Source: an uncultured Clostridia bacterium (GTDB lineage: Bacteria > Bacillota > Clostridia > Christensenellales > UBA1242). From it: DNA of 64,000 bases. A model generated the notes under the pieces. That model was not told the DNA's origin. It did not search any database and was given only the letters and a program-made list of their open reading frames with translations. Location of the stretch: contig CALVNN010000003.1 in assembly GCA_944349765.1 (NCBI GenBank), positions 5,786-69,785 of the forward strand. Direction: 5' to 3'. Positions 1,201-41,119 of this stretch are shown here, in pieces. Both the position numbers and the translations under genes were made by a program. The stretch's first letter is position 1; every line of letters begins with the position of its first letter.

Positions 1201-2448
1201 ATCCTTAAGTCCTTCTCGGCCAACCGTAGTATTATCTTCGTTTCGGTTGTTTAATTCCTCAATAGGGTGGGCACTTTCTTGATAACGGTAATCTTCTCCG
1301 AATTTTTCAATACTCATATTAATTACTTGATGACTCGGCACACTCTCTGTATCCGAATTGATCTTTCGTTGATATTCAAAGAAGAGTGATTTGCTCGGAA
1401 GTTTTTCGTTGTCTATATAGTCTTCTTCATCACTAGTCAAACGAACTGTATCTAATATGACATCTCTGATATATTCCTTATTCTCTCCAAACTTTAAAAG
1501 AGTAGGAAAGTCGGGTTTGGGAAGTATATCTTTGTAAGTCTTTTTCTCATATTTTCCTAAAAGCTCGCTAGCGAGTTTTAAATGTGCTACTTCCATATAA
1601 AAGTGATCTTCCCATATATTCTTAATATATTTATCTGTTTCATCCTGCATCATTGAATAGTATAAGTATGCTTCTGTATATTCGTGCATTACCCAAGATT
1701 CAAGCCAAGTACAGGTAGGATCTTTTAGGGATTCGTATTGAGATACGTGTTGTTCTTCAATAAGAGCAATTTCGCTATACAGCTTTCTTCCGTGGTCGTT
1801 TGGATAAAAATTTGCCAAATTCATATAAAAATTCATTGTTTGTTGTTCAGCAGCTGTTATGATATTAGACACTAATATTGATTGTGGGTTAGCAGTACTA
1901 TTATCAAGACAACGCTTTATATTGTCGGTTGGGTATCTATGTTCGGAAATAGTAGGTCTACCTGGCATAATTTCGGTTAGTTTTCCTACTAAATGTTCAG
2001 ACTCAATACCATAGTCCATTTTTAATAAATTAGCAAATCTGTACAAATGGTCAAAATCTTCAAGTAAAGCAAAATTTAAAGCTTTGATATTATCTTCATT
2101 AGTTTCATTCTTTGCTAAAACGGCAGTTAGCTCAATAGCTAGTTGCTCGTAAGAAATGGTAGTTTCAAGCATATTTTCATCCTTTGGCTTTAAACTGGCA
2201 ATACGTTTTTGCTGTTGTTGTTCTTGTGCTCGAATTATAGCTAAATGTTTCTTTATCTCTGGTTCATCGCAATGTCTAGCAAATTGATGTAAAAACCAAT
2301 TTGATTCAAATTCTGTCCCGTTCATAAGTATTACACGAACTTTTGTAAATGGGTCAGTATTTGTTTTGTCGTATGGTTTGCTGTACATTTTTGACCAATT
2401 CATAAAATAGTCATTGACGTCTTTGGATTTTACCTCAAATGGATTCAT
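1189..2448 (-). CDS. ferritin-like (di-iron carboxylate type) domain protein
   Basis: Start moved to the ATG at 2448 (MNPFEVK), which sits 8 nt after a GGAGG. Two E..H-type motifs (LEDFDHLYRF, IEEQHVSQYE) are typical of ferritin-like four-helix bundles. Confidence 0.5.
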   Translation of the reverse strand: MNPFEVKSKDVNDYFMNWSKMYSKPYDKTNTDPFTKVRVILMNGTEFESNWFLHQFARHCDEPEIKKHLAIIRAQEQQQQKRIASLKPKDENMLETTISYEQLAIELTAVLAKNETNEDNIKALNFALLEDFDHLYRFANLLKMDYGIESEHLVGKLTEIMPGRPTISEHRYPTDNIKRCLDNSTANPQSILVSNIITAAEQQTMNFYMNLANFYPNDHGRKLYSEIALIEEQHVSQYESLKDPTCTWLESWVMHEYTEAYLYYSMMQDETDKYIKNIWEDHFYMEVAHLKLASELLGKYEKKTYKDILPKPDFPTLLKFGENKEYIRDVILDTVRLTSDEEDYIDNEKLPSKSLFFEYQRKINSDTESVPSHQVINMSIEKFGEDYRYQESAHPIEELNNRNEDNTTVGREGLKDLNK

Positions 2449-2757
2449 ATTATTTTTACCTCCTTGTTTTATAATTACCAAAAATGCTTGCTTTTAAACG
2501 CTAATTAACTTTAAAATTTTTATAAGTAATTGCTTCTTATTTGATAAATTTTTTAAAATTTGTTAGTATAAATTAGCTTAAAACGACACATTAATCAGTC
2601 TTTATGGCATATATTTTATTGCCGATAATAGATTGATTTTAAGAATTTATGAGCTTAGCAATTATAGCTTTATAGGTCTTATGGATGAAACGGCAATGAG
2701 GGCAAAGTTGCTGTTTTTTTGTTTTTTATGCAATTTTAAGTAATACAAGGAGGATTT

Positions 2758-3034
2758 ATGATTTCAAAAATATAAAAATAGAATGATTATTGTTTTGACT
2801 GCTTTTGCAGCTTTTTTGGCAACATTTAATGAAACATTTTTAAATATTGCTTTTGACAGTATTTGTGCTAGCTTTGGGGTAGAGTTTTCCTTAGTTCAGT
2901 GGCTTGCGACGGCTTATATGCTGGGGGCTGCTATAATGATACCAGTGTCATCTTTTTTGTATAGGAAGATACCTACTAAAGTGTTATTTTTGTGCACGTT
3001 AGGATTTTTGATTGTGGGTAGTATTGTTGCTTGA
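2758..3034 (+). pseudogene. remnant of a DHA2/EmrB-type MFS transporter (N-terminal ~85 codons only)
   Basis: A strong RBS (AAGGAGG) precedes the ATG at 2758, but that frame stops after 5 codons. The MFS-like TM1-TM2 sequence (LTAFAAFLATFNETFLNIAF...WLATAYMLGAAIMIPVS) resumes in another frame at 2783 and ends at codon 83, followed by a hairpin. A full MFS has 12-14 TM segments. Confidence 0.6.
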
Positions 3035-3262
3035 ATTTTGCTATTAATATGGTAAATAAAGACCTTTCAAATTAATTTTTCAAGCTAAAGATCATTTCTT
3101 TAGCTTTTTTGTATAAAAATTCATAAAAATTGTAAAAAATTGTAAAAATTTACTTTTTGTAAGCTTTATAGTTGATTTTAAAGGGTAAAAATGTTATTAT
3201 TAAATAGTTTTAGGGCATTAAATATCATAAAAAGTGGCATTTTATATATAAAGTAGGTAAAT

Positions 3263-4678
3263 ATGAAATATGATGATAAGGATTTAGATACAAAATACAA
3301 TGAGTTTGTAGATAATAGCGAACAAATACATTTGAATTGCAATAGTAAGGAAGAACTAGATGTTTTTAATATTTATCAACTCAGATATTTAGGGTGGCAG
3401 GTAGGAGTACGACGTCCAACCACCTATAAAAAAGCTGAATTAATTGATGAGATATGGAGTGTATATACTGGTGAGAAAAAGCCACATATAAAAGCCTCCA
3501 AAAAAGGTAATTCTTCCAAAAATTTAGAGAAACTACAGGGGTTGACCCAAAAAGTTGATGAGTCGTCTTTAAGCGATAAATTCTCATTGACAAAGTCGCA
3601 AATACTTACTTTAAATAGTAGTTCGTATGATTTTGAGAGGGCTGAAGAACTTTCTAAAGTTGACGTGTGTGGATTGGTGTTAAAACAACAAGAATACTAT
3701 GTGCTTATTCCAAATAATTGGTGTGATGACGTTTATTTTATTCCAAATATTGTCGTAGAAAAATACCATTTAAGTACTGGTGACTATATAGAGGCTAAGG
3801 CTGAGAGTAAGGAAGACTTTAATCGTTTGATAGTCACTAAAGTGATAAATATTAATGGCAACCCTATAGATTATTCTACAAACATAGACTTTATGGTTGC
3901 AAAACCTATTGATACTAAGAAAGAATTATTCGTATCTACAAATGAAGTCGAAAAATCTGTACTAAATACTATTTGCCCTATCAAAACTGGTGATAGAGTT
4001 ATCATTTGTGCAAATGATAAACTAGAGCTAGTTACTGGAATTTATTCTATTGTAAAAAAATTATCTCTTAATCCTAATAATGAAATAGTGTGTATATTGT
4101 TAAATTCAACACCTGAGCATATAAAAGTTTTTGAAAATATTGAAAATATAAGATTAATTTCTGCTTCGTTTGATGTGGACGACGTGTGTCAAACTGGTCA
4201 ATTCGAATTAGCCTTAAAACACATTCAGCGTTTAGTAACAAAGACGGAAAAAAATGTCATAGAAATTGTGGTGGATATAGATAATGTTATTTCAGAGTTT
4301 AAAAAAGCTAATATATCTAAAGAAGATTGTATGAAATTGTTAGACCAAAATTTTAGTCTAGCTAAAAATATTCAAAATAATTCCTTGACAATTATGTATG
4401 GAATGTTATACAATAATGATGGTTATTTGGAATTCAATGGAACGGAAAATGTCAAGATTGCTCTAACTGATAGGCAAATGCTTACTATCAGTGACTACAA
4501 GATAGATATTTTAAATACTTATCGTACTGATATGTCGTCTTTGTACGAAATAAATGAGCTAGACAAGGCAATTAGGACATTTGTCGCTTTGGGTGATTAC
4601 AATTCGCAACACTTGAAATTCGAACAAATAATGAAGTCGTGCAGTAGTGTAAAGGATTTACTTGAAAAATTAAAATAG
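3263..4678 (+). CDS. Rho-like protein (Rho_N plus CSD-like RNA-binding plus RecA-fold architecture) with a degenerate Walker A motif
   Basis: The protein lines up with E. coli Rho (from memory). [27 protein letters not shown] matches [50 protein letters not shown] matches [36 protein letters not shown] matches LLIDERPEEVTEM. The GKT P-loop is absent. Confidence 0.6.
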   Translation: [471 protein letters not shown]

Positions 4679-4692
4679 TAGGGAGATGTTTT

Positions 4693-4893
4693 ATGATTTT
4701 TGAACCACCTGTTGAAGAAATGGTTGATAAAGTAGGTAATGGCTATTTACTAGCAAATTTAATGGCTAAGAGAGCGAAGATGTTATTCCAACATCCGACT
4801 GAAGAGTTGGAGAATGGTACTAAGACTGAATTGCAGATTGCCGCAGAAGAGATTTATGCTGGTAAAGTAGTAATAGATGATACTCAAGCTTAA
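4693..4893 (+). CDS. rpoZ: DNA-directed RNA polymerase subunit omega
   Basis: 66 aa. PPVEEMVDKVGNGYLLANLMAKRAKML matches the conserved RpoZ N-terminus (B. subtilis [27 protein letters not shown]). A GGGAG RBS lies upstream. Confidence 0.85.
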   Translation: MIFEPPVEEMVDKVGNGYLLANLMAKRAKMLFQHPTEELENGTKTELQIAAEEIYAGKVVIDDTQA

Positions 4894-4911
4894 GCTTAAA
4901 GGAGGGTGTGT

Positions 4912-5544
4912 ATGAATTTTGCGTATGACTTTATAGGTGAGGCAAAAGCTCTGGGGACGAGAAAAAACTCATTGAGCGGTTTCTTAGCCTTTATCTATAA
5001 TTGGTTTGGACGAATTGGCTTTTGGATTTTTGGCCCGATGGTTGTAGATACGGCAATTGTATTATTGGTGATGTATTTTGCTATGAGACCTGAGCAACTT
5101 GAAGTTTTCCATGTGATCATAATGCTCGTAGCTGTAGTAGCATTGTTGTTTATTATAGGTTATGTAGTTAGGTATATCTATAGATCTAGTAAAGGTAAAG
5201 CAGGTATTATCTACAGTGAGCAAAGAATTATTAATATACTTCAGATAGAAAACAATGAAGTAAAATACTCACTTAATAAATTTAATAAGACTCAAGATTC
5301 TACAGAAAAAGTATACGCACTAAACTATATATTGTTGAGTATAGAAGACGCTATTGATGTGGTTGAAGAAGAACTAGATAGGATGAATGGAAAAATGCAA
5401 GATATTGATGAAGGCTTAAAAGCTATATATAATAGCGAGTATGAATACATAGAATCTTTGTATGAAAGATTGGTATCTAAGTACAATGATATGGTAAAAG
5501 AACGAAAAGAATTTATAAAAGAAAATAATCTTAATATTGAGTAA
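4912..5544 (+). CDS. membrane protein with a C-terminal coiled-coil region, function unknown
   Basis: Start moved to the ATG at 4912, downstream of an AGGAGG. Two to three hydrophobic helices are followed by a charged helical tail. Terminator at 5551-5575. Confidence 0.6.
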   Translation: MNFAYDFIGEAKALGTRKNSLSGFLAFIYNWFGRIGFWIFGPMVVDTAIVLLVMYFAMRPEQLEVFHVIIMLVAVVALLFIIGYVVRYIYRSSKGKAGIIYSEQRIINILQIENNEVKYSLNKFNKTQDSTEKVYALNYILLSIEDAIDVVEEELDRMNGKMQDIDEGLKAIYNSEYEYIESLYERLVSKYNDMVKERKEFIKENNLNIE

Positions 5545-5550
5545 AAATTA

Positions 5551-5575
5551 CCCACATATATATGTGGGATTTTTA
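5551..5575 (+). terminator. rho-independent terminator
   Basis: CCCACATATA/TATGTGGG stem followed by a T-run. Confidence 0.8.
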
Positions 5576-5744
5576 TTATATACAGATAAGTTGATTTGAT
5601 GTAATTTCATCAGCAATTGATTAAAAAAATAATCAATCTTTAGTGATAAAATTTGAAATGCACACTGATTTTTTTATTTTGCATCTTGACTTATTTGTCT
5701 TTATAATATATACTTAAATTAATATAAGTTAGGAGCTTAAATCT

Positions 5745-6557
5745 ATGAGTAAATCAAATGCGGATAGTTATTTCAAAGAATTTTACCTTGACTCTATAGT
5801 CCATGAGCTGGATAAAGAATTAAAGTCTCAAGGTAAGTTTAAGAAATTTATGCATGACTTCAAATATTTGCGTGGTGTAGGCGGTATTAGCTCTCGTATA
5901 CTTGCTAGTGCTACTGCTGGTCCGCTAATTACATATTTTATTGTTCAAAATGGGTTCTTGCCATATGTTATGTCTTTAGGGCTTTGTGGTGCTTTCTTAG
6001 TAATACCACCAGTTATCAGAAGAACAGTGCTTAAAAATAAGGCAAATAATGACCAAATATTTAAGGCAATATATAATATGAAAGAAGATTTGGATGCTTC
6101 TATTTACAATATAAAGCGTGGGGTAAGAGATTTACAAAAAGCAGTAAATGACCAACGTCGTACGCATAGTAATAATGTTACGCAAAAGCTAGAAGCTATG
6201 GATTATATTTGTGGACCACTTAAAAGCTCTGTAAAATACTTCAACAATGAGATTGAACATTTGCAAGAGGTTGCTTCATCGACTAAGGATGCTAAATTAA
6301 AGTCACGTATTGATGATTTTGTTGAAAAAGCAACGGAGTGGAAAGAGCATCTTGAGTATTTGTACGATGAATCAATGTACGCTGCATATTATATAAATGA
6401 CAATGCTGAATATGAAGAAGATCGTGAATTAGGTAATAAGATAATAATGTATGCTGGTGGTTTGCCATACAAATCAGTTGCTTGTGGGACTTCCAAGAAC
6501 ATTGAATATGAAAATGTAGTACAAAACCGCCCAAGGGATATTGAATTAGGTAGATAA
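5745..6557 (+). CDS. membrane protein with a long helical cytoplasmic region, function unknown
   Basis: AGGAG RBS upstream. Two central hydrophobic helices are followed by a coiled-coil-like region. No recognisable family. Confidence 0.6.
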   Translation: MSKSNADSYFKEFYLDSIVHELDKELKSQGKFKKFMHDFKYLRGVGGISSRILASATAGPLITYFIVQNGFLPYVMSLGLCGAFLVIPPVIRRTVLKNKANNDQIFKAIYNMKEDLDASIYNIKRGVRDLQKAVNDQRRTHSNNVTQKLEAMDYICGPLKSSVKYFNNEIEHLQEVASSTKDAKLKSRIDDFVEKATEWKEHLEYLYDESMYAAYYINDNAEYEEDRELGNKIIMYAGGLPYKSVACGTSKNIEYENVVQNRPRDIELGR

Positions 6558-6593
6558 AAAGCTTAAGCATTTGATGCTTAAGCTTTTTTGTTA

Positions 6594-6914
6594 CTAATAT
6601 GATATGAGTGGATAAATTACTAGTATCATAATAATATACATGATGATGCTTAAAACTATCCCTGAAATAAAACCAATTAAGGCACCTTTACCAGCTATTG
6701 AAGCGTTGTTTGGGGCAGTGTCTTTCCATACTAAGTATAGAATAAGTCCAATAAGAGGGAAGAAAAATCCCAAAAATCCCCAGCCTATACTACCTGAATC
6801 CTTAGATTTTTTTATAGGAGTAGTATCGTTGCTAGTTTGTTTTAGTATTTTTCCGCAGTTAAGGCAAACATCAGCATTATCATTTACTTCGTGTCCGCAA
6901 TTTTGACAGTACAT
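6594..6914 (-). CDS. zinc-ribbon domain membrane protein
   Basis: Start moved to the ATG at 6914 (MYCQNCGHEVNDNADVCLNCGK), downstream of an AAGGAG. A CxxC...CxxC ribbon is followed by two TM helices. Confidence 0.7.
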   Translation of the reverse strand: MYCQNCGHEVNDNADVCLNCGKILKQTSNDTTPIKKSKDSGSIGWGFLGFFFPLIGLILYLVWKDTAPNNASIAGKGALIGFISGIVLSIIMYIIMILVIYPLISY

Positions 6915-6978
6915 AAAAGTCTCCTTAAATTTGTTGAAATGATTGTAGCTCAATCTAGATTAAGCATAACATATGATT

Positions 6979-7974
6979 TTATTTATTGCAAGATAAATTT
7001 TTATAAACCTCCACAGCAAGTGCAACAGTAGCACCTACCATAGGGTTGTTTCCCATACCTATAAAACCCATCATTTCGACGTGTGCAGGTACAGATGAAC
7101 TCCCAGCGAATTGTGCGTCGCAGTGCATGCGTCCCATAGTGTCGGTTAGTCCGTAGCTAGCTGGTCCAGCTGCTACATTATCAGGATGAAGTGTCCTACC
7201 CGTACCTCCGCCTGAAGCTACAGAGAAGTAAGGTCTATTATTATTTACGCACCATTTCATATAAGTGCCGGCGACAGGATGTTGAAATCTCATAGGGTTG
7301 GTGCTATTGCCAGTGATAGATATATCGACGTTTTCATGTATCATAATAGCCACACCTTCTTCTACATCATACGCACCAAAAATGCGGATATTGCTTCTAG
7401 GTCCTGTACCAAATTTAATTTCATTCACTATTTCGAGTTTATCCTTTTCGTGGATAAACTTAGTTTTTACATAAGTAAAACCATTTATTCTAGCTATTAT
7501 ATATGCAGCATCTTTGCCAAGGCCATTGAGTATTACTTTGAGTGGCGTTTTTCGAACTTTGTTGGCGTTGCTTGCAATACCTATTGCACCTTCAGCAGCG
7601 GCAAATGATTCGTGTCCAGCCAAAAAGCAAAAGCATTTTGTATCTTCATCAAGTAGTTGACTGGCAAGCTTCCCGTGGCCTACTCCGACTTTTCTTTGCC
7701 ATGCTACAGATCCAGGAGTGCAAAAAGCTTGAAGACCTTCACCTATTGCTAAGGCTATGTCTTTAGGGGAGTCTAAATTTTTTTTGATAGCTATGGCACA
7801 GCCAAGAGTATATGCTTCTATGGCATCGTCAAAAGCAATAGGTTGTACGCCCTTTACAATGTCAGCTACGTTGATGTTTTTATCAAGACAGATTTTTTTA
7901 GCTTCGTCGATATCTTTTATATTATATAACTTTAATGTTTCTTTTATGCTCGCTTGTTTTTTAATTGATGCCAT
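6979..7974 (-). CDS. GGGtGRT family protein (conserved, function unknown)
   Basis: Contains the literal signature VASGGGTGRTLHPDN, encoded near 7200-7222. At 331 aa it is typical for this family. Confidence 0.8.
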   Translation of the reverse strand: MASIKKQASIKETLKLYNIKDIDEAKKICLDKNINVADIVKGVQPIAFDDAIEAYTLGCAIAIKKNLDSPKDIALAIGEGLQAFCTPGSVAWQRKVGVGHGKLASQLLDEDTKCFCFLAGHESFAAAEGAIGIASNANKVRKTPLKVILNGLGKDAAYIIARINGFTYVKTKFIHEKDKLEIVNEIKFGTGPRSNIRIFGAYDVEEGVAIMIHENVDISITGNSTNPMRFQHPVAGTYMKWCVNNNRPYFSVASGGGTGRTLHPDNVAAGPASYGLTDTMGRMHCDAQFAGSSSVPAHVEMMGFIGMGNNPMVGATVALAVEVYKNLSCNK

Positions 7975-8638
7975 TTTTCACCTCACGTGGGTCAACAAAT
8001 TTTACCCCATCTTCATATCTGCCATAGGTCTTAGTGCTTTGTTTTACAGCGTCGGTATTTGAAGCTTGTCTAAGTTTGGTTAGTAATTCGCTCGTATCAA
8101 TATACTCATAACCTATTATTTCATTATTAGCATCCAAAGCTAATTTAGTGATATACCCTTCGGCTGTGTTTAGGTAGATAGGACCATCATTTATATTTGA
8201 ATAAATAGTCCCAACACTACTGCATTTGCTTTTACCTAAGTCGTCAAGTGCCGAACCTATCTCTAGTCCGTTTTCGCTGTAAGCTGACTGGCTACGACCA
8301 TATACTAGTTGTAAAAAGACCTTTTTCATAGCGACATTGATGGCGTCACATACCAAATCTGTATTAAGTGCTTCAAGCAAGGTCTTGCCCGGTAGTATTT
8401 CGCCAGCCATAGCCGCAGATTGAGTCATACCACTACAGCCGATAGTCTCGACTAGTGCTTCAACTATAATACCTTTTTTTACATTTATAGTGAGTTTACA
8501 AGCTCCTTGCTGTGGTGCACATCCACCTACGCCGTGGCTAAATCCACTAATATCTTCAATTTTTTTTGCTTGTACCCATTCGCCCTCAACGGGGATAGGT
8601 GAAGCCCCTTGAGCTTTGCAAAAAGAAATTTTATCCAT
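7961..8638 (-). CDS. IscU/NifU-N-like iron-sulfur scaffold-fold protein with a C-terminal extension
   Basis: GGCAPQQGACKL, ETIGCSGMTQSAA, GKTLLEAL and LVCDAIN line up with the IscU motifs ACGDVMKL, TYGCGSAIASSS, GKSLDEA and HCSILAEDAI, with three Cys retained. It overlaps the downstream GGGtGRT gene by 14 nt. Confidence 0.65.
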   Translation of the reverse strand: MDKISFCKAQGASPIPVEGEWVQAKKIEDISGFSHGVGGCAPQQGACKLTINVKKGIIVEALVETIGCSGMTQSAAMAGEILPGKTLLEALNTDLVCDAINVAMKKVFLQLVYGRSQSAYSENGLEIGSALDDLGKSKCSSVGTIYSNINDGPIYLNTAEGYITKLALDANNEIIGYEYIDTSELLTKLRQASNTDAVKQSTKTYGRYEDGVKFVDPREVKNGIN

Positions 8639-8872
8639 AAATGCTCCTTAAATTTTGTATATAATATTTATTATAACCATTAAACCTAAAAAAAGCAAAT
8701 GTTGTAGATAAATTGGTGAAAAAATGCTTAATTAATGGTAAAATTTTTACAACAAAACATAAATTTGTACAAATTTTCACATTTTTGAATAAAAATTGTA
8801 CAAAAATAGTTGAGTTTTTAAAAATTATTTGTTATTATGTCACTACAAAACAACAATTTGAGGAGATTTTGT

Positions 8873-9559
8873 ATGAAATATTTTACGTGCTTAATTTTAA
8901 GTAATAGTGAGGGGAGGTTAAATAATTTAACTGAATTAGCTAAGACAAACGACTTTGTTGTAGTTAAGACACGTTCAGTTGTTGAGTTTATACATGCTGT
9001 GGGGTTTTATAAACCAGAATGTATTTTAATAGATGTTGACTCGTTTTCGGGAGATGATGTCATAAAATTGGTGCTAAACTCGGATAAAAAGTATTTGAAA
9101 GATGCTATTGTCCTTAGTGAGATTGAGCTAGACGGTTATACTTGCATAAATTTTGATAATGTGTCTAATATGCTTAATCTCAAAAAGACCGCTATTACTG
9201 AGAAAAAATTAATCAGTTTTACCGATGAGCAACTGTCTACCGCTAGTAGTGCCATTCGACAAAAGCTTATAGAGCTAGGATTTATTCCGAAATATAATGG
9301 ATTTCATATGCTTGCAGAGATTGTGTTGCTTTGCTGTATAAACCATGATAGTGCTAATATGCATAAATTCATTTTACCAGCTGTGGCTCATAAGTTTGAC
9401 ACGACTGTGAGCAATATTACGCAGTGTGTACGTAAAAGCATCAAGTGTAGAGATGTAAGGAAATATGATTATCCTTATGAAAAGCCTACGCTCAAACAAA
9501 TGGTAAAATATATAGATGAGTTATTGAATGATAAATTTTTGGAAATTATGCATAAATAG
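8873..9559 (+). CDS. Spo0A C-terminal (DNA-binding) domain protein with a degenerate receiver-like N-terminus
   Basis: Start moved to the ATG at 8873, downstream of a GAGGAG. GFHMLAEIVLLC...ILPAVAHKFDTTVSNITQCVRKSIK resembles the Spo0A_C segment KGYLYLREAI...[25 protein letters not shown]. In the N-terminus the acidic DD pocket is replaced by LSNSEG and the conserved Lys is absent. Confidence 0.55.
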   Translation: MKYFTCLILSNSEGRLNNLTELAKTNDFVVVKTRSVVEFIHAVGFYKPECILIDVDSFSGDDVIKLVLNSDKKYLKDAIVLSEIELDGYTCINFDNVSNMLNLKKTAITEKKLISFTDEQLSTASSAIRQKLIELGFIPKYNGFHMLAEIVLLCCINHDSANMHKFILPAVAHKFDTTVSNITQCVRKSIKCRDVRKYDYPYEKPTLKQMVKYIDELLNDKFLEIMHK

Positions 9560-10423: not shown

Positions 10424-10449
10424 CAATATAATAGTAAGGAGAGATGCAT

Positions 10450-13400
10450 ATGCAGAAGAGTAAAAAGAGTACGGTGATATTATCGGCAATAATGATAATA
10501 TTATCTGTATGCCTAATATTAGGTGTCACCTTAGCATATTTTACCGACACAAGACGAAGTGAAAGTGCAGTGAATTTTGGTAAGATAGAGATAAGTGTAG
10601 ACGAACCATTTTCAGAGGAGGTGACGCTAAAGGATGTATTGCCAGGTGACAAACTAACCGATGCTATTAAGTTTAGCAAAGCGGTAGATAGTGAACCTAT
10701 GTACATAAGGGCAAAAGTATCCTTTGAGTCAGATGATGCAAGTCTATCTAGTCTTATAGATGAGCTAAACACTTCAGCTATAGAGACTGTGGATGGGACT
10801 GACTATGTATGGAGTGGTAAGAAAGGTAAGTTTTATTATCTAGTAGAGGCAGGAGATACTAGTAGGGCTTTTGCTGTATGCGATACTAGTGAGATAACTC
10901 TAACTAACGCAATAGAATTACCTAGATCATTAAACCAAATGGCAGACTATGGTCAGTATTTCAAAGAGATTACGCTCAAAGTAGAGCTTCAAGCAATACA
11001 AGTGGCTAGTGTAAATAATAATATCATAGAGATAGACTCAGTGTTTGAAGAACTATTTGGAGAAGCTTATTATACCTTTGATAATCTCTATGAAGTGACA
11101 GGGAATACTATAACAGGTTTAAGCGAAGAAGCTAAGACCTTTAGTGAGCTTACAATCCCTACTAGCTATGAGAGAGATGGCGAGACAATTGACATTACTA
11201 GGATAGGTGCAAGTGTATTCCAAGATAATGAGAATATAGTTAGCTTAAGCATACCAGAGGGTATAACGGGTATAGGCGAGTATGCCTTTAACGGAGCTAC
11301 CAATCTAACTAATATAACACTCCCTACCGGTATAACTAGTATAGGTAGAGACGCATTTGTAGATACCGCATGGTACAATTCTCAAGCTGACGGGCTAGTA
11401 TACGCATCAGATTGGTGTATAGGCTATAAAGGTACAGTACCTACTACTTTGACATTTAGTGATACTTGTGTAGGTATAGCTGACTATGCCTTCTATAACT
11501 GTACAGAGCTAACCGGTACGCTTACTTTACCAGCAAATATCGTGTATATAGGTCAACACGCTTTTGACGGCTGTACAAATCTAACAGTAGTAGACTTTGA
11601 GGGTAATCCTGTGTCTACTCCAAGTGGAGCATATGCAGGTGTAAATAACGCTCAAGGTGAAAGTACTATGGCTTTGACCAGTATAGGTACAAGTGCTTTC
11701 TATAATTGTACATCTTTAAACGCAGTACATATAACCGACCTTAAAGCATGGGTAAGTATAAACTTCAGTAACGCACAGGCTAACCCATTATATGAAGCAG
11801 GTAATCTATATCTGAATGGTGAGGCACTAGTAGACTACACTATGCCTAGTGATATAACCAAGATACGAGCATACTCATTCTACAATTGCCAAAACATTAC
11901 TGGTACTCTTACTCTTAGCGAAGGAGTGAATATAATAGGACTAAATGCATTTAGTAATTGTTCTAATATGTTGACCTTATCCTTACCAGAGAGTCTCTGG
12001 ATAGTAGGTTACAACGCTCTAAGCGGATGTAGCAAACTAGTCCAAGTAGAGAATAAACCAAACCTATCTTTAAGTGGGCTACCAAACAACGCAGGACAAT
12101 CTGTAGCTACTGACGCTAGTGAATTTACCAATTCTATTAGTACAGTAAATGATAAGTACATAATACTAACAGATACTACAGGAACCACAACAAATAAATA
12201 CTTAGTAGGTCTAGTAGATACATCTATAACCGATGCTACAGATATACCAAATGATGTATCTTATATTTATCCAGATGCATTTAGTGCTAGTAGTAATCTA
12301 GATTTAGTATTACCTAGCGGTATTACAACGATATCCGATAAAGCATTTAATGGTATAGATCTAAAAAGTGTAGTAATTCCAGATACTGTAACTACTATAG
12401 GCGCTAACGCATTCCAAAATTGCACAAACTTAACTAGTATAACAATAGGAGATGGTGTAACAGATATAGGTGTTAGTGCATTTGCAAATTGTACAAACTT
12501 AACAAGCGTGACAATAGGACAAGGTGTAAAGAGTATAGGAAATTCAGCATTTAGTGGTTGTACAGGACTAACAGAGATAAACTATAATGCAATAAATTGT
12601 GAAGATTTATCTGCAAGCCCATTTTCTAATGTGGGACAAAATACAGAGGGGATAACGGTAAATATAGGAGCAAGTGTACAAAGAATACCAGCATGTTTAT
12701 TTTATTCTGGCAACACAAATAACGCACCAAATATAAAAAGTGTCACAATAGGAGAAAGTGTAGCAAGCATAGGTGGTCAAGTGTTTTGGGGTTGTACAGC
12801 TTTAACTGAAATAAACTATAATGCAATAAATTGTGCGGATTTATCTTCTGGTAGTAGAGTATTCTTTCAGTCAGGACAAGCTACAGATGGTTTAACAGTA
12901 ACTATAGGACCAAATGTACAAAGGATACCAGCATACTTATTTTATGAATCTGGTTCAAATTTTGCACCAAAGATAACAAGTGTAGTGTTTGAAGAAGTAA
13001 GTCATTGTGAAAGTATTGGTAATTATGCGTTTAGGAGCTGCTCAGGTTTAGCTAGAGTAGTGTTGCCTTCAAATGTACATTATTCTACATACTCATTCTC
13101 AGATAGTACAGTAATTGTAAATATTAGTGATCTAGAAACTGAGTATAACAATGCATACTATCGTGGCGTAGGGGATAATCCTTACCATACTCTAGTGATA
13201 TCAAAAGATACTTCTATAACTAGTTGTCAAATACACCCTGATACAGTAGTAATAGCTGAAGAAGCATTTTATAATTGTAGGAATTTAGAAAGTGTCGTAT
13301 TTGAGGGAAATAAATGCACAACTATAGGAGATTATGCTTTCTATTATTGTAGTAATTTAAATATAGAATTACCAAGCAGTTTAACGATTATAGGTGAAAA

Positions 13401-16400
13401 TGCATTTAGATATTGTAATAGTATAACTAGCATTAAAATTCCTGAAAATGTAAGTAGTATAGGCGAATATGCTTTTTACAATTGTGAAGGGTTAACAAGT
13501 ATAGAAATACCAGAAAATGTAACGAGTATAGGTCGTTCTGCATTTTTAGCTTGTTACGCCTTAACAGAAATTAAGTACAATGCAATAAATTGTAGCGATT
13601 TAGCTTCTGATAGTGCTATATTCCAAAGTTCAGGACGAGACACAAATGGAATTACAGTAACAATAGGAGCAAGTGTGCAAAGCATACCAGCTTATATATT
13701 TAATGGAGTGTCAAAGATAACTAGCGTAGTGTTTGAAGGGGAAAGTCAGTGTATAAGCATAGGGAATTATGCATTTAATGGGTGTTCAGCTTTAACCAGT
13801 ATAAGTATTCCTGATAAAGTAATGAGTATAGGTGAAAATGCTTTCGGTAGTTGCTTTGGATTAACCAGCATAACAATCCCAGAAAGTGTAACAAGTATAG
13901 GTCGTAATGCATTCTATGATTGTACAGGATTAATAGAGATAAACTATAATGCAACGAATTGTGATGATCCAATTGATAGCATATTTATTTATGCAGGGAA
14001 AAATAATAGCGATGTTACGTTAACAATAGGGGCAAATGTTCAAAAGATTCCAGCATATTCGTTTTATAATTCAAGAATAACAAAGGTAGTGTTTGAGGAT
14101 GGAAGTCAATGTACAAGTATAGGAAACTATGCATTTAGGAATTGTAGTAATTTAACTAGCATAAGTTTCCCTAATAGCTTAACTACCATTGGAGATTACG
14201 CTTTTGCTGATTGTAGTAACTTAAATGGCATCACTATTCCTAGCACTATAACCGATTTAGGTGCAGGTGCATTTGATGGGCTTACATATACAACAGAATA
14301 TGATAATGCTTATTATTTAGGTGTGGGAGATAATCAATACTATATGCTACTCAAAGCAAAAAGTACCTCTATAGAAAGTTGCGAAATTAATTTACAAACA
14401 GTAGTTATTAATGCTAGTGCTTTTGAGGGATGTACATCGCTAAAAAATATTAGCATACCAGAAAATGTAAAAAGAATAGGTGCAAGAGCTTTCTATGGCT
14501 GTAGTGGGTTAATTGATATAACTATGCCAGAAAGTCTAACAAGTATAGGTGAGTGGGCTTTTTATAATTGTAGCAGTTTAACAAGTATTACAATACCTAC
14601 TAGAGTAGCAAATATGGGAAATTATGCATTCTATAATTGTACAAAATTAACAACAATAAACTACAATGCGGTGGGTTGTAATGACCTAGCTAATAATAAT
14701 AACGCTTTTAGATATGCAGGCAATTATGCAAGTGGCATAACAGTAAATATAGGAGCAAATGTTCAAAGAATTCCAGCATATTTATTTAATCCTTATAATA
14801 GCTCAAGTTACGCACCAAAGATAACAAATGTGAAATTTGCCGAAGGAAGCCAATGTGAAGAAATAGGAGATTATGCATTCTATTATTGTAGAAACTTAAC
14901 AAGTGTAACATTACCAGTAGATACGATTTATAGTTCGACTTCATTTAGTAGTAGCACTTCAGTTGAGGGTGGGTTTATTCAAAGTGACGCTGACGCTATT
15001 GAATATGACAATGCCTATTATTTAGGTGTAAATGGCAATCCGTATCATACTTTAGTAAAAGCAGTAAGTACCGATATAACTACTTGCACTATACATGAAG
15101 ATACTGTGGTAATAAGTGCTAATGCGTTTGAAAATTGTAGTAGTTTAACTAGTATAACAATTCCAGAAAATGTAGCAAATATAGGAAATTATGCTTTTAG
15201 AGGATGTACAGGTTTAACCGAGATAAACTACAATGCAACGAATTGTGAAGATTTAACATCTAATAGTTTCGTTTTCAATAATGCTGGTTCAACAGAAAAT
15301 GGATTAGGTGTCACAATTGGTGCAAATGTAGAAAAGATTCCAGCGTATTTATTTAGAGGCATTTCAAAAATGACAGGTGTTTTGTTTGCGGAAGAAAGTC
15401 AGTGTGCAAGTATAGGGCTCCGTGCTTTCTATGGTTGTACTGGTTTAACAAGTATAACAATACCAAAAAGTGTAACAAATATAGGAGGACAGGCATTTTA
15501 TAATGCTACAGCATTAACAGAGATAAACTATAATGCAACGAATTGTGCAGACTTGTCTTCTAACGCTGGAGCATTTTACAACGCAGGAAACATAGGAGGT
15601 GGGATACAATTAAATATAGGTAAAGGTGTGCAAAGAATACCAGCAAGTTTATTTGGTGTGCAACACTATGATAGCAACTTCGCACCCAAAATAACAAGTG
15701 TAACTTTTGAGGGTGAAAGTCAATGCGCAAGTATAGGCAATTATGCTTTCCAGTATTGTGATAGCTTAACGGATATAGTAATACCAGACAGTGTAACGAG
15801 TATCGGAAATTCTGCATTTTCTTATTGTATAGATTTACAAAGTGTAACAATAGGGCAAGGCGTAACAAATATAGACCATAATGCATTTAGTAACTGTACA
15901 AAATTAACTGAGATTCACTATAATGCAACTTATTACAATGACATATTATCTAATAATTACATTTTTATGCGCACTGGTTCAACAGAAAATGGATTAACTG
16001 TTACTATAGGTAAAAATGTACAAAGGATTCCATCATATCTATTTTATAGTTCAAATATTTCAAGCGTAGTATTTGCTGAGGGTAGTCAGTGTACAAGCAT
16101 AGGAATTTCTGTGTTTGGTAATTGCTCTAGACTTACAGAAGTATATATTTCAAGTATAAGTGAATGGTTACAGATGCAGTTTGAGGGATCCACCTCAAAC
16201 CCATTAGGTTATGCGAATAAACTTTATGTAAATAACCAATTAACTACAGAAATAACAATACCAGAAAATGTAACAAGTATAGGAAATTATGCGTTCTACA
16301 GTTTTACAAGCTTACAAAGTATAGCAATAGGTCAAGGTGTAACAAGCATAGGTAGCTACGCATTCTATAATTGTAATAATTTATCAACTATAACAATACC

Positions 16401-17691
16401 AGATAGTGTGACTAGTATAGGTAGTTATGCATTATCTAGTTGTACAGGCTTACAAAGTGTTACAATAGGACAAGGTGTTACAAATATAGAGAATAATGCA
16501 TTTTATGGTTGTACAAGCCTATCAGAGATAAATTATAATGCAACAAATTGTGAAGATCTATCTTCTGATAATCAAGTATTCTATAATGTAGGACAAAGTA
16601 CAGATGGCGTAACTGTAAATATAGGCGCAAATGTACATAGGATACCAGCATATCTATTTAATCCAAGCGACAATTCTAGCTATTCTCCTTATGTTTCAAG
16701 TGTAATATTTGATAACGGTAGTCAGTGTATCAGTATAGGTGACTATGCATTTGCTTATTCTAGTAGTTTATATGAAATAAATTTGCCAGATAGTTTGGTA
16801 AGCCTAGGTCATTACGCATTCTATAATTGTTATGTATTAACTGATATTACTATACCAGTTAATGTCAAAGCTATAGGTTATTGTACTTTCAGTAACTGTA
16901 TAAATCTGATGTCTGTAACAGTTTCAAGTACATTAAAGTATATAGATTTCAATGCTTTTTACGGATGTGATGGATTGTCTGAAGTGGTTTATAATGGAAC
17001 AGATGCAGAGTGGCAAGAATTAATAAACAATACAGAAAGTGGCAATGAAGACTTTATAGAGCACAACGGGACTATAAATCTTTATGATATGCAAGTAAAT
17101 GCGTATAGTGTAGATGGTAGCACCAAGACAGCATTTGATAATAATTTTGAAGTAATTAAGGCTGATGGAACTGTGGTAACAGATAATATACAAGTCTATG
17201 CTGGTGAGCGTATAGGTGTTAAGTTGTTTACTGAAGTTATAAACGGTAAATATTATCAAGTAAGCTCCATCAAGTTAAAATTGAGTGATGGAAGCACACA
17301 AACCATCAATGCAAATATAATAAATGCTATATATGATGAGAGTGAAATGTTCTACTTCTTTGTACCAGTTACAGTAAGTGGTGCAGTTAGTCTAGAGCTA
17401 GAGTACACTCCATTCCAAATATTAAATATTGATTTAACTTCCAGTCAAGCAAGCTTTTTGACTTATATTTATAAGACTGGCGGCGGTACGATGTTTGAAA
17501 CAATTCGTCTTAATCAAGAGAATTTATTTAAGTTGTGGAATGGCGAATATAGAGTAACTTTACCAGACTTTATAGGGACTATAAAATATGAAGATGGTTC
17601 AACAGCTGGGACTTTCACGACTACTTGTGATGGTACACAGATAATGATATACGTTGAAGGTGAAGATAATCCTAATGTTATCATAATATAA
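10450..17691 (+). CDS. giant secreted protein: SipW-type signal peptide, TasA/camelysin-like N-domain, BspA-type leucine-rich repeats (LRR_5), and a beta-rich C-terminal region
   Basis: The ATG at 10450 is preferred over 10444 because it lies 7 nt from AAGGAG. N-terminus KKSTVILSAIMIILSVCLILGVTLAYFTDT is followed by VLPGDKLTDAIKF (TasA has LKPGDKLTKDFQF). Dozens of repeat units of the type ITIPxSVTSIGxxAFxxCxxLTS follow. No LPXTG motif and no C-terminal TM helix. Confidence 0.8.
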   Translation: MQKSKKSTVILSAIMIILSVCLILGVTLAYFTDTRRSESAVNFGKIEISVDEPFSEEVTLKDVLPGDKLTDAIKFSKAVDSEPMYIRAKVSFESDDASLSSLIDELNTSAIETVDGTDYVWSGKKGKFYYLVEAGDTSRAFAVCDTSEITLTNAIELPRSLNQMADYGQYFKEITLKVELQAIQVASVNNNIIEIDSVFEELFGEAYYTFDNLYEVTGNTITGLSEEAKTFSELTIPTSYERDGETIDITRIGASVFQDNENIVSLSIPEGITGIGEYAFNGATNLTNITLPTGITSIGRDAFVDTAWYNSQADGLVYASDWCIGYKGTVPTTLTFSDTCVGIADYAFYNCTELTGTLTLPANIVYIGQHAFDGCTNLTVVDFEGNPVSTPSGAYAGVNNAQGESTMALTSIGTSAFYNCTSLNAVHITDLKAWVSINFSNAQANPLYEAGNLYLNGEALVDYTMPSDITKIRAYSFYNCQNITGTLTLSEGVNIIGLNAFSNCSNMLTLSLPESLWIVGYNALSGCSKLVQVENKPNLSLSGLPNNAGQSVATDASEFTNSISTVNDKYIILTDTTGTTTNKYLVGLVDTSITDATDIPNDVSYIYPDAFSASSNLDLVLPSGITTISDKAFNGIDLKSVVIPDTVTTIGANAFQNCTNLTSITIGDGVTDIGVSAFANCTNLTSVTIGQGVKSIGNSAFSGCTGLTEINYNAINCEDLSASPFSNVGQNTEGITVNIGASVQRIPACLFYSGNTNNAPNIKSVTIGESVASIGGQVFWGCTALTEINYNAINCADLSSGSRVFFQSGQATDGLTVTIGPNVQRIPAYLFYESGSNFAPKITSVVFEEVSHCESIGNYAFRSCSGLARVVLPSNVHYSTYSFSDSTVIVNISDLETEYNNAYYRGVGDNPYHTLVISKDTSITSCQIHPDTVVIAEEAFYNCRNLESVVFEGNKCTTIGDYAFYYCSNLNIELPSSLTIIGENAFRYCNSITSIKIPENVSSIGEYAFYNCEGLTSIEIPENVTSIGRSAFLACYALTEIKYNAINCSDLASDSAIFQSSGRDTNGITVTIGASVQSIPAYIFNGVSKITSVVFEGESQCISIGNYAFNGCSALTSISIPDKVMSIGENAFGSCFGLTSITIPESVTSIGRNAFYDCTGLIEINYNATNCDDPIDSIFIYAGKNNSDVTLTIGANVQKIPAYSFYNSRITKVVFEDGSQCTSIGNYAFRNCSNLTSISFPNSLTTIGDYAFADCSNLNGITIPSTITDLGAGAFDGLTYTTEYDNAYYLGVGDNQYYMLLKAKSTSIESCEINLQTVVINASAFEGCTSLKNISIPENVKRIGARAFYGCSGLIDITMPESLTSIGEWAFYNCSSLTSITIPTRVANMGNYAFYNCTKLTTINYNAVGCNDLANNNNAFRYAGNYASGITVNIGANVQRIPAYLFNPYNSSSYAPKITNVKFAEGSQCEEIGDYAFYYCRNLTSVTLPVDTIYSSTSFSSSTSVEGGFIQSDADAIEYDNAYYLGVNGNPYHTLVKAVSTDITTCTIHEDTVVISANAFENCSSLTSITIPENVANIGNYAFRGCTGLTEINYNATNCEDLTSNSFVFNNAGSTENGLGVTIGANVEKIPAYLFRGISKMTGVLFAEESQCASIGLRAFYGCTGLTSITIPKSVTNIGGQAFYNATALTEINYNATNCADLSSNAGAFYNAGNIGGGIQLNIGKGVQRIPASLFGVQHYDSNFAPKITSVTFEGESQCASIGNYAFQYCDSLTDIVIPDSVTSIGNSAFSYCIDLQSVTIGQGVTNIDHNAFSNCTKLTEIHYNATYYNDILSNNYIFMRTGSTENGLTVTIGKNVQRIPSYLFYSSNISSVVFAEGSQCTSIGISVFGNCSRLTEVYISSISEWLQMQFEGSTSNPLGYANKLYVNNQLTTEITIPENVTSIGNYAFYSFTSLQSIAIGQGVTSIGSYAFYNCNNLSTITIPDSVTSIGSYALSSCTGLQSVTIGQGVTNIENNAFYGCTSLSEINYNATNCEDLSSDNQVFYNVGQSTDGVTVNIGANVHRIPAYLFNPSDNSSYSPYVSSVIFDNGSQCISIGDYAFAYSSSLYEINLPDSLVSLGHYAFYNCYVLTDITIPVNVKAIGYCTFSNCINLMSVTVSSTLKYIDFNAFYGCDGLSEVVYNGTDAEWQELINNTESGNEDFIEHNGTINLYDMQVNAYSVDGSTKTAFDNNFEVIKADGTVVTDNIQVYAGERIGVKLFTEVINGKYYQVSSIKLKLSDGSTQTINANIINAIYDESEMFYFFVPVTVSGAVSLELEYTPFQILNIDLTSSQASFLTYIYKTGGGTMFETIRLNQENLFKLWNGEYRVTLPDFIGTIKYEDGSTAGTFTTTCDGTQIMIYVEGEDNPNVIII
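12571..16780 (+). repeat. nine divergent copies of an ~80-130-codon super-module inside the LRR gene
   Basis: The module reads LTEINYNA(I/T)NCxDLSS...G(I/L)TV(N/T)IGANVQRIPAYLF...APKITSVxFxxxSQCxSIGNYAF. DNA copies of the ATAAACTA(T/C)AATGCAA(T/C)(A/G)AATTGTG core start near 12571, 12811, 13570, 13941, 14657, 15222, 15521, 15913 and 16527. Three EYDNAYYLGVGDNPYHTLV modules start near 13141, 14296 and 15001. Confidence 0.85.
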
Positions 17692-39517: not shown

Positions 39518-41119
39518 ATGGCGTTGAAAAATATAAACGAAATAGCAAATAAATTAAAGTTTAATGAAGAAGATATTATTCCTTATGGTAAATTTATCGC
39601 TAAGATTGCTCGTAAACCAAGTAAGCAAAAGGGGAAGTTGGTTCTTGTAACAGCTATCAATCCGACGCCCTCAGGTGAAGGGAAAACTACAGTCAGCGTA
39701 GGTCTTGCTGATGCATTTAATTTAAAGGGAGAAGCGGTGTGCTTAGCCCTAAGAGAGCCTTCTTTAGGACCTGTATTTGGTATGAAAGGCGGTGCGACAG
39801 GTGGCGGACTATCTAGAATTGAGCCGTCGAAATCTATTGACTTACACTTTACTGGTGATATACACGCTATCACGTCGGCAAATAATTTGCTTTGTGCTAT
39901 GATAGATAACCATATTTATTTTGGCAATGAATTAGGATTTGATAAAGTTACCTTTAATAGATGCATGGATATGAATGATCGAGCTTTGAGAAATATAGTT
40001 TGCGGTAGCGAGGGTTGCAGAAGGGAAGAAAAATTCAATATCACTGCTTCTAGTGAGATAATGGCTATACTATGTTTAGCTAAAGATATGGAGGATTTGA
40101 AACGTCGACTTGGCAATATTGTTGTTGGCCTTACTAAAAGTAATCAACCAATCTACGCGAAACAACTTAAAGCCGAAGATGCAATGTGCGTACTTTTGTT
40201 TGACGCAATTAAGCCTAATTTAGTACAGACCCTAATAGGGACACCAGCAATTGTACATGGAGGACCTTTTGCAAATATTGCACATGGGTGTAATAGTATT
40301 ATCGCGACAAACACCGCTTTGGGATGTGCTTCTTATGTGATAACCGAAGCTGGTTTTGGTGCGGATTTAGGTGCGGAAAAATTTTTTGATGTCAAGTGCA
40401 GAAAAGCCAATTTAAAGCCTGATGCGGTAGTGCTAGTGTGTACTATCAAGGCACTTAAATACAATGGCGGTGTGGAAGTAAAAGATTTGCAAGCGCCTAA
40501 TGTCGATGCTGTAGTAAAAGGTAGCGTAAATCTTATAAAACATATCAAAAATATTAAGGAAGTATACAAATTACCACTTGTGGTGGCAATTAACCGATTT
40601 GCTAGTGATAGTGAAGAAGAGATTGAAGTCGTTAAAAATATTGTTAATAAGTTTGATGTGGATTGTGAAGCCGTTGATGTATTTGGCCAAGGTGGGCAAG
40701 GTGCGTTAGGTTTGGTTGATAGGGTTATCAAGGCTTGTGATAGCAAAAATGAATTTACTTTTGCTTATCAGGACGAGGACGACATTGTAACTAAGTGTAC
40801 AAAAGTTGCGTGTAAAATATATGGTGCTAGTGGGGTGGAGCTAACTGAAGAAGCAAAAAAAGACCTAGAGTATATCCAAGGTCTAGGTAAGGCACACTAT
40901 CCAGTTGTAATAGCTAAGACTCAATATTCTTTAAGTGATGACCCGAAAGCATTAGGAGCTCCTAGTGACTTTAAATTGAAAATAAGAGCTTTTGAGCTGA
41001 GAAATGGTGCTGAGTTTATTGTAGCAATAGCTGGGGATATAATGCTTATGCCGGGCTTAAGTAGAGAGCCAAGAGCTACAAAAATGAGATGCAATCAAGA
41101 CGATTTTAATTTAGCGTAG
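39518..41119 (+). CDS. fhs: formate--tetrahydrofolate ligase
   Basis: LVTAINPTPSGEGKTT, EPSLGPVFGMKGGATGGG and VHGGPFANIAHGCNS. Confidence 0.9.
   Translation: MALKNINEIANKLKFNEEDIIPYGKFIAKIARKPSKQKGKLVLVTAINPTPSGEGKTTVSVGLADAFNLKGEAVCLALREPSLGPVFGMKGGATGGGLSRIEPSKSIDLHFTGDIHAITSANNLLCAMIDNHIYFGNELGFDKVTFNRCMDMNDRALRNIVCGSEGCRREEKFNITASSEIMAILCLAKDMEDLKRRLGNIVVGLTKSNQPIYAKQLKAEDAMCVLLFDAIKPNLVQTLIGTPAIVHGGPFANIAHGCNSIIATNTALGCASYVITEAGFGADLGAEKFFDVKCRKANLKPDAVVLVCTIKALKYNGGVEVKDLQAPNVDAVVKGSVNLIKHIKNIKEVYKLPLVVAINRFASDSEEEIEVVKNIVNKFDVDCEAVDVFGQGGQGALGLVDRVIKACDSKNEFTFAYQDEDDIVTKCTKVACKIYGASGVELTEEAKKDLEYIQGLGKAHYPVVIAKTQYSLSDDPKALGAPSDFKLKIRAFELRNGAEFIVAIAGDIMLMPGLSREPRATKMRCNQDDFNLA

Follow-up and report, generated by a model that had tools for sequence, protein, structure and literature searches.

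The 64,000-nucleotide (nt) stretch analyzed here (the window: contig CALVNN010000003.1, assembly GCA_944349765.1, from an uncultured Clostridia bacterium) carries on its plus strand, at positions 3263-4678, a gene whose 471-amino-acid (aa) product is clearly derived from the transcription termination factor Rho, yet fails most of the defining features of the Rho family. Immediately downstream, at 4693-4893 on the same strand, lies rpoZ, encoding the 66-aa omega subunit of RNA polymerase (RNAP). We put at about one in two the probability that the Rho-like protein is a pseudo-ATPase that works independently of ATP as an RNAP-associated factor and forms a conserved two-gene module with omega. Since the parts needed for ATP hydrolysis and for pulling RNA have been lost, yet the gene is conserved and always lies just upstream of the omega gene, the protein suggests that a motor protein has been reused as a polymerase-associated factor.

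Judged from profile and structure comparisons, the protein is a homolog of Rho along its full length, although too divergent for the curated Rho models. An hhalign comparison of 20 members of its clade with eight canonical Rho proteins, including that of E. coli, reached a probability of 100% (E 5.4e-40), the colinear alignment of 445 columns running from the N-terminal helical domain through the C-terminal helices. When PDB chains were searched with phmmer, only Rho was significant (T. maritima, 4e-10; E. coli, 4e-7), and all of the top 50 Foldseek hits of the AlphaFold2 (AF2) model were Rho structures (probability 1.00, E down to 2e-11). The NCBIfam rho models TIGR00767 and NF006886 matched with E 7e-14, but the scores stayed below the cut-offs of these rho equivalogs (51.3 bits against 509.45, and 51.4 against 315), with profile positions 3-261 of about 415 covered; the score against NF041509 'paralog_Rho2' (41.3 bits, cut-off 628) was below as well. 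The Pfam domains were also sub-threshold in the window protein (Rho_RNA_bind, 16.3 of the required 27 bits, E 0.009; Rho_N, 12.9 of 24.9). Among its relatives, Rho_RNA_bind reached E 1e-5 in lineage L004, and Rho_N passed the cut-off in L002 (26.0 against 24.9).

The order of domains is that of Rho. The HeH (Rho_N-like) domain, residues 29-70, and the basic segment behind it, residues 71-88, together occupy positions 3347-3526 on the plus strand and are defined by the clade alignment. A homolog of the OB-fold RNA-binding domain of Rho follows at residues 133-205 (3659-3877, plus strand), recognized by Pfam, HMMER and hhalign in a part of low AF2 confidence, and a RecA-type core stripped of catalytic motifs spans residues 239-402 (3977-4468, plus strand), supported by AF2 (predicted local distance difference test score, pLDDT, 72-89), by Foldseek and by the aligned motifs. 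Because its alignment held just nine sequences, the AF2 model, with a mean pLDDT of 55, is confident only for the N-terminal domain (NTD) and the RecA core; it is used here for the RecA core and the P-loop region alone, since the OB domain, the linkers and the arrangement of domains are not modeled reliably. In the OB fold, the equivalents of D78 and Y80 are retained (DDVYFIP, compared with DDIYVSP), RNP1 is degenerate (EYYVLI, compared with GFGFLR; F62, F64 and R66 have become Y, L and P), and RNP3 is not conserved. Acidity of this domain was considered as an argument against RNA binding and rejected: the OB segment of E. coli Rho is net negative too, and the clade varies.

The catalytic motifs were located with the numbering of E. 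coli Rho (gene rho of NC_000913.3), and the assignments hold in the HMMER, MAFFT and hhalign alignments. Opposite the Walker A sequence APPKAGKT (K181, K184, T185) the window protein has ANDKLELV (residues 250-257; 4010-4033, plus strand), placed there by the alignments and the AF2 model, and no GK[ST] occurs anywhere in its 471 aa. In the AF2 model, the strand 245-250 passes straight into the helix 253-267 through a turn of two residues, and thus the P-loop is absent. N281-S282-T283 (4103-4111, plus strand) stand opposite D210-E211-R212, which include the catalytic Glu and the adjacent Arg, and V337 (4271-4273, plus strand) stands opposite the Walker B residue Asp265. An Asp directly follows V337, but it is not conserved, the clade having V, Q, E, P, I, H, L or K at this position. 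At the same time, R421 (4523-4525, plus strand) is aligned by both MAFFT and hhalign with the Arg finger R366, and at least 88% of 25 clade members have this Arg.

Moreover, the Q- and R-loops of Rho, which form its secondary RNA-binding site used for translocation, are largely deleted: about nine residues are gone after residue ~353 and about seven near residue ~383. These losses are common to the subclade of the window protein. Walker A is missing from every member, the positions of the catalytic Glu and Arg are substituted, and in nearly every member the loop segments measure 9-12 residues instead of 21 (Q-loop) and 10-13 instead of 17 (R-loop). The exception is P0022/L028, where the P-loop is gone but the Glu is kept (DEN) and the loops are of nearly full length, 19 (Q) and 16 (R) residues. 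As far as the alignments and the model can tell, the protein would be unable to bind or hydrolyze ATP or to thread RNA through a ring, and it cannot be an ATP-driven RNA translocase.

The first-pass annotation of this DNA had described the full Rho layout (NTD, OB fold and RecA-type core) with an ablated Walker A and an altered Walker B motif, and had considered ATP hydrolysis unlikely. The layout is borne out by the hhalign and Foldseek results and by the match to the rho profiles, albeit below the family cut-offs; both motif losses are confirmed, Walker A with three alignment methods; and the predicted structure combines a RecA core that matches Rho with a replaced P-loop. The case against hydrolysis has become stronger through the lost catalytic Glu, the two-residue turn and the deletion of both translocation loops, which had gone unremarked.

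The loss of catalytic residues is not accompanied by decay of the gene. Comparison with the closest ortholog, 62% identical and found in L001, gave dN (nonsynonymous divergence) of 0.29 at saturated dS (synonymous divergence), and the two proteins have in common the segment CA(N/E)DKLEL(V/I)TG that replaces the P-loop; by this measure the gene is under purifying selection. Within the clade, information per alignment column is highest in the HeH domain (2.95 bits) and the basic segment (2.83), followed by the RecA core (2.04) and the OB fold (1.85). In canonical Rho the order is reversed, the ATPase domain being conserved best. The N-terminal segment is basic in every member (isoelectric point 8.9-10.6), and an AT-hook-like motif, KKGRPxK, is near-invariant within its basic part. 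The window protein reads KKGNSSK here (residues 81-88; 3503-3526), whereas nearly all members, including the 62%-identical ortholog, have the motif, which has been lost specifically in the window lineage.

The linkage to rpoZ, often with translational coupling, is the strongest clue to function. In the window, the stop codon of the Rho-like gene is separated by 14 nt from the start of rpoZ, and the junction carries a ribosome-binding site, GGGAG, for the latter. The first-pass annotation had called the downstream open reading frame (ORF) omega, had given this spacing and had pointed out that gmk is absent. The spacing follows from the ORF coordinates (4678 and 4693), the omega assignment is secured by Pfam RNA_pol_Rpb6 (PF01192; 36.4 bits, cut-off 26) and TIGR00690 rpoZ (29.2 bits, cut-off 23.6), both above their cut-offs, and gmk is not found among the window ORFs of at least 150 aa.

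The same adjacency, whose survey among relatives had been suggested together with these observations, is present in 11 of the 11 lineages examined, always with the Rho-like gene directly upstream of rpoZ. The intergenic distance ranges from -4 to 204 nt and is at most 19 nt in eight of the lineages; the Rho-like genes are intact, encoding 434-486 aa, and their products show pairwise identities of 18-62%. A search from the Rho-like side found the pair in L001-L004, which according to the genome records are metagenome-assembled genomes (MAGs) of uncultured Clostridia or Christensenella. From the other side, a profile of five omegas retrieved 39 omega proteins of the same subtype, named DNA-directed RNA polymerase subunit omega by NCBI and JGI, and where these were looked up on long contigs, a P-loop-less Rho-like gene (434-486 aa) lay directly upstream in seven of seven cases. 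The most distant omega match (P0223) is found in the ordinary arrangement gatCAB-rpoZ-priA, with no Rho-like gene. The pair-bearing lineages, at least 11 in number, are uncultured Clostridia or Christensenellales-like MAGs.

The genomic contexts of the pair number at least four. Six lineages have it upstream of secE-nusG-rplK-rplA; in the window, L001 and L020 it is followed by two genes for membrane proteins; in L024 it is near rnpA-yidC-jag; and in L028 it is found between SleB-YpeB and a signal peptidase. That the two genes stay together while their surroundings change is good evidence of functional coupling.

In four lineages, a compact phage-derived head module is located directly upstream of the Rho-like/omega pair (L004, 1906-9759; L015, 336-8484; L018, 352-8485; L029, 253-8394), and the Rho-like proteins of these lineages are just 31-52% identical. 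The module encodes a portal (phrog_156), a major head protein (phrog_14242), a virion structural protein, DUF7934 and a BhlA-like holin, and no terminase or tail genes were recognized in it. Perhaps this is a domesticated element and not an active prophage.

Among the roles proposed in the first-pass annotation, all of them hypothetical (a regulator binding RNA or RNAP, or a modulator of true Rho), one linked to RNAP seems the most likely because of the gene neighborhood. A review (PMC12360218) describes 'stand-by' pre-termination complexes, where a Rho ring that is open and catalytically inactive sits on RNAP via its NTD face. The pseudo-Rho may dock on the elongation complex in the way inactive Rho can, through its NTD face and an inert RecA scaffold, while contacts with nascent RNA or DNA would fall to its basic N-terminus and its OB fold. 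In such a position it could modulate elongation or termination, for instance by occupying the site of Rho on RNAP. Alternatively, it could be a lineage-specific accessory subunit made in step with omega. In general terms, the N-terminus and the OB fold would serve for contacts with nucleic acid or protein, and the RecA scaffold for assembly or docking.

Several points weigh against this interpretation. Any RNAP binding, nucleic-acid binding or oligomeric state is conjectural, and the adjacency of the gene to rpoZ is a correlation. A homomer that works without ATP gives no reason for an Arg to be conserved at the Arg-finger position. The residues of the OB fold that contact RNA in Rho (F64, R66, D78, Y80, E108, Y110) are kept only in part, the window protein does not have the GRP motif of its clade, and beyond the RecA core and NTD the AF2 model is poor.

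A bolder extension of the ATP-independent RNAP-linked role can be put forward only tentatively. It holds that a ring-helicase terminator has turned into a non-motor, lineage-specific RNAP accessory, so that the pseudo-Rho, stoichiometric with omega and present on the elongation complex either by itself or together with true Rho in mixed rings, would set the balance of termination and antitermination in a whole order of uncultured gut Clostridia, as the most extreme member of a radiation of pseudo-ATPases of more than 100 clusters.

The conserved Arg is better accommodated if the protein joins a true Rho, encoded elsewhere, in mixed rings as a non-catalytic subunit, similar to the alpha subunit of F1-ATPase. 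It would then supply its Arg finger to the ATP site of a neighbor and, devoid of Q- and R-loops, tune or poison translocation, thereby regulating Rho-dependent termination. We consider this unlikely, although several facts fit it well. The Arg opposite R366 is nearly invariant even though the ATP site of the protein itself is gone, and both the RecA scaffold and the C-terminal helices are retained. In addition, the Rho-like gene is never found at the classical rho-rpmE-DUF1385-prmC-prfA locus, where the canonical rho of L014 sits, as would suit a paralog. On the other hand, the linkage to rpoZ rather than to rho is left unexplained, the best-conserved part is the NTD and not the ring interface, and no canonical rho was found among the window ORFs of at least 150 aa or in 454 kb of flanks of the related loci, an observation of little weight for whole genomes.

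An indirect hint of a true Rho comes from base composition. For the 43 annotated ORFs of the window, the sense-strand purine content is 56% for genes of both strands, a bias that is oriented with transcription. Such a bias was tied to functional Rho in Bacilli (PMC13323073, 2026). The value of the window exceeds the 54% reported for B. subtilis. This favors the mixed ring weakly at best, because the comparison relies on a benchmark from Bacilli and is confounded by AT-rich codon usage. Together with the position of the Rho-like locus, the purine bias makes us lean weakly towards a separate canonical rho elsewhere in the genome; the label of a paralog, given to the gene in the first-pass annotation, is unproven.

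We likewise doubt that Rho-dependent termination has been abandoned in the lineage and that the protein, as the only descendant of Rho there and a degenerate one, is kept for an ATP-independent side activity, such as RNA chaperoning or nucleoid, DNA or RNA binding via its basic N-terminus and OB fold, with no specific role at RNAP. Such a history would be in line with a 2024 survey, according to which about 30% of Bacillota have no functional Rho (PMC11347177), and with the lack of a second rho in any of the flanks examined. It also agrees with the continuum of increasingly degenerate forms described below. In L005 (9974-11254), a P-loop-bearing Rho-like protein (GPKGSGKT, DKRPE, E211K), without the Arg finger, is encoded with no omega gene downstream; in L028 (7197-8657), a different MAG, a P-loop-less protein is encoded together with omega, and both genes share the neighborhood SipL-(SpoIIR)-SleB-YpeB. 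The common site points to a stepwise history at one locus and suggests that L005 and L028 are successive stages of degeneration there. However, the strict linkage to rpoZ across rearranged contexts argues for a polymerase-related role, and the strong purine bias gives a weak indication that Rho is still active in the window genome.

The remaining explanations fare much worse. A phage- or mobile-element-derived Rho decoy, acting in anti-termination or against Rho in the manner of Psu and carried into the chromosome, would account for the head module directly upstream in four lineages, but it is highly improbable: no relative was found in 2.9 million viral contigs, the Rho-like protein has no PHROG or PADLOC match, the pair occupies stable chromosomal positions, and in the window, L001, L002, L020, L024, L026 and L028 there are no adjoining phage genes, the neighbors being housekeeping ones. 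A decaying, functionless pseudogene, as the loss of all catalytic motifs might imply, is scarcely credible given that ORFs of 434-486 aa remain intact in 11 or more lineages, that dN is far below dS, and that blocks including the segment in place of the P-loop are strongly conserved. The conservation data and the viral-contig, PHROG and PADLOC searches effectively exclude both, and these searches likewise lent no support to a defense-related origin.

The omega-linked protein of the window is one branch of a much larger family. A word-indexed search with it found only two relatives, and one with the clade profile hardly any, whereas an exhaustive HMMER search of 1.84 billion representatives gave 791 matches at E<=1e-3, including 146 at E<=1e-10. 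About a dozen of the ~140 near-full-length matches are fully canonical, and the remainder have lost catalytic elements in many combinations. A locus search with a narrower alignment yielded four genome and five metagenome loci, four of the latter being canonical Rho. The subclade of the window protein comprises P0002-P0022 and the rpoZ-linked loci; nearly all of its members lack every catalytic element and have both loop deletions. The nearest relatives that bear a P-loop form the GSGK[ST]/DKRPE group, whose proteins carry Lys in place of the catalytic Glu and have lost the Arg finger, and one of whose members is named 'Rho termination factor N-terminal domain-containing protein [Clostridia bacterium]' by NCBI. 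The N-terminal signature of the clade is also found in some fully canonical Rho proteins, and therefore the clade descends from a Firmicute-type Rho. By the motif comparison, the Rho-like/rpoZ clade is the most extreme case of catalytic loss in this family.

Beyond the rpoZ-linked clade, P0023-P0151 make up more than 100 clusters at 50% identity, in which Walker A, the catalytic Glu, Walker B, the Arg finger or the Q/R-loops have been lost variously, and most of which carry the HeH and K-x-GRP N-terminus. They apparently represent a large, undescribed radiation of Rho-derived pseudo-ATPases.

The pair in the window is followed by a third gene (4912-5544, plus strand; likely start ATG 4912 behind AAAGGAGG), whose 210-aa product has transmembrane helices and a coiled coil and is 40% identical to its homolog in L001; it is kept only in the window, L001 and L020 lineages. 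A candidate sigma-A promoter, TTGATT-17-TATTAT with a TG extension (3172-3200, plus strand), lies about 60 nt upstream of the Rho-like start. A terminator-like hairpin, CCCACATATATATGTGGG followed by a T-run (5551-5568, plus strand), is the probable end of the operon, and another (3082-3106, plus strand) would end the upstream unit. This arrangement suggests a three-gene operon of the Rho-like gene, rpoZ and the 210-aa gene, with a putative promoter and terminators that are consensus matches only; in this AT-rich region, promoter-like sites are not enriched over shuffled sequences. An Rfam search of 2400-7000 found no RNA element. The upstream unit is an 83-aa ORF (2783-3034) that matches just the first ~75 positions of the MFS_1 model and looks like the remnant of a truncated transporter. 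The second gene after omega (5745-6557) encodes a 270-aa coiled-coil protein. Both it and the 210-aa gene also follow omega in L020, the 210-aa gene does so in L001, and neither is found there in the other lineages. No Pfam, PADLOC or NCBIfam assignment above threshold was obtained for these two proteins.

The window as a whole is chromosomal DNA of a spore-forming Firmicute with ~32% G+C, encoding SpoIVA, SpoIIP, GPR, Obg, UvrB/C, Ffh, TrmD and L10; it belongs to a metagenomic scaffold of 127 kb (ENA ERZ28614065). Further along it, a GGGtGRT-family protein (331 aa, 578 bits; 6979-8638, minus strand) overlaps an upstream 225-aa Cys-rich protein without family assignment by 14 nt, a conserved gene pair present in L006/L007 as well. 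An orphan Spo0A-like regulator of 240 aa (8837-9559) has the C-terminal DNA-binding domain of Spo0A, with no receiver domain detected. A giant protein of 2415 aa with repeated LRR_5 domains is encoded at 10444-17691, and similar giants occur near the Rho-like/omega pair in L020 and L026. Finally, adjacent genes for Ku and an ATP-dependent DNA ligase (41095-42854, minus strand) constitute a bacterial nonhomologous end-joining pair in a spore-former.

The common view of Rho is that of a motor driven strictly by ATP, and 'functional' copies with intact ATPase domains have been the focus when its diversity was surveyed. A full-length Rho that is under selection without catalytic elements or translocation loops would represent a second, ATP-independent use of the Rho scaffold, and its coupling to rpoZ, in many lineages to secE-nusG too, points to the transcription machinery as the site of that use. 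If the protein does bind RNAP, it would amount to a natural experiment that bears on the contested 'stand-by' mode, where Rho travels on RNAP in an inactive state, and the gut Firmicutes, abundant but uncultured, would have a new accessory factor. Genome annotation is affected in practice as well: calls of the presence or absence of 'Rho' that are made from matches to the N-terminal or RNA-binding domain will misclassify the pair-bearing genomes.

Canonical Rho (E. coli, 1PV4/3ICE; T. maritima, 3L0O; TIGR00767) has the same domain order and fold, from the NTD and OB fold through the RecA core to the C-terminal helices, and the Rho-like protein resembles it further in the Arg at the Arg-finger position and the OB residues of D78/Y80 type. 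It differs in the loss of Walker A, Glu211/Arg212, Asp265 and both the Q- and R-loops, and in scoring 51 bits where the cut-off is 509. Moreover, conservation in its clade is higher in the NTD than in the RecA core, and its genetic tie is to rpoZ instead of the rho-rpmE-prfA locus. Rho2 and short-form paralogs (NF041509; Group A/B and Type 4 of D'Heygere 2013 and PMC11347177) are similar in being extra or atypical Rho-family genes of some genomes. Such paralogs are reported to keep the catalytic residues and the bicyclomycin pocket, and some lack the NTD, whereas the Rho-like protein has kept the NTD and lost catalysis.

In the main text of the 2024 survey (PMC11347177), functional Rho is defined by intact RNA-binding and ATPase domains, and second copies keep the catalytic residues. 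Its category 'Rho-like', with N-terminal and/or RNA-binding domains only, covers 421 species that are given in the supplement only. The window protein would probably fall there, as ATPase models do not detect its ATPase domain. The category is a leftover bin rather than a characterized family, and in that main text no mention was found of an inactivated RecA core, loop deletions or linkage to rpoZ. The searchable literature, which excludes the supplement of that survey, likewise gave no account of a full-length Rho that combines an inactivated RecA core, deleted loops and linkage to rpoZ. Plant RHON1 and the cyanobacterial DUF4912 'Rho-like' proteins (PMC13613805) have only the HeH domain of Rho_N, whereas the protein described here also keeps the OB fold and the RecA core.

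Closer to it is the GSGK[ST]/DKRPE group (P0024, P0026, P0030, P0069 and L005), which has the N-terminal signature LGIFQLR...KKGRPPK and the architecture of the Rho-like clade, but has kept the P-loop and full-length Q- and R-loops, with Lys for the catalytic Glu and no Arg finger; in L005, rpoZ is not downstream. More remote parallels are the alpha subunit of F1-ATPase and the B subunit of V-ATPase, homologs of the catalytic ring subunits that have lost catalysis and kept the scaffold, F1 alpha also keeping the Arg finger. These subunits still bind nucleotide and alternate with catalytic partners, whereas the Rho-like protein has dispensed with the P-loop altogether.

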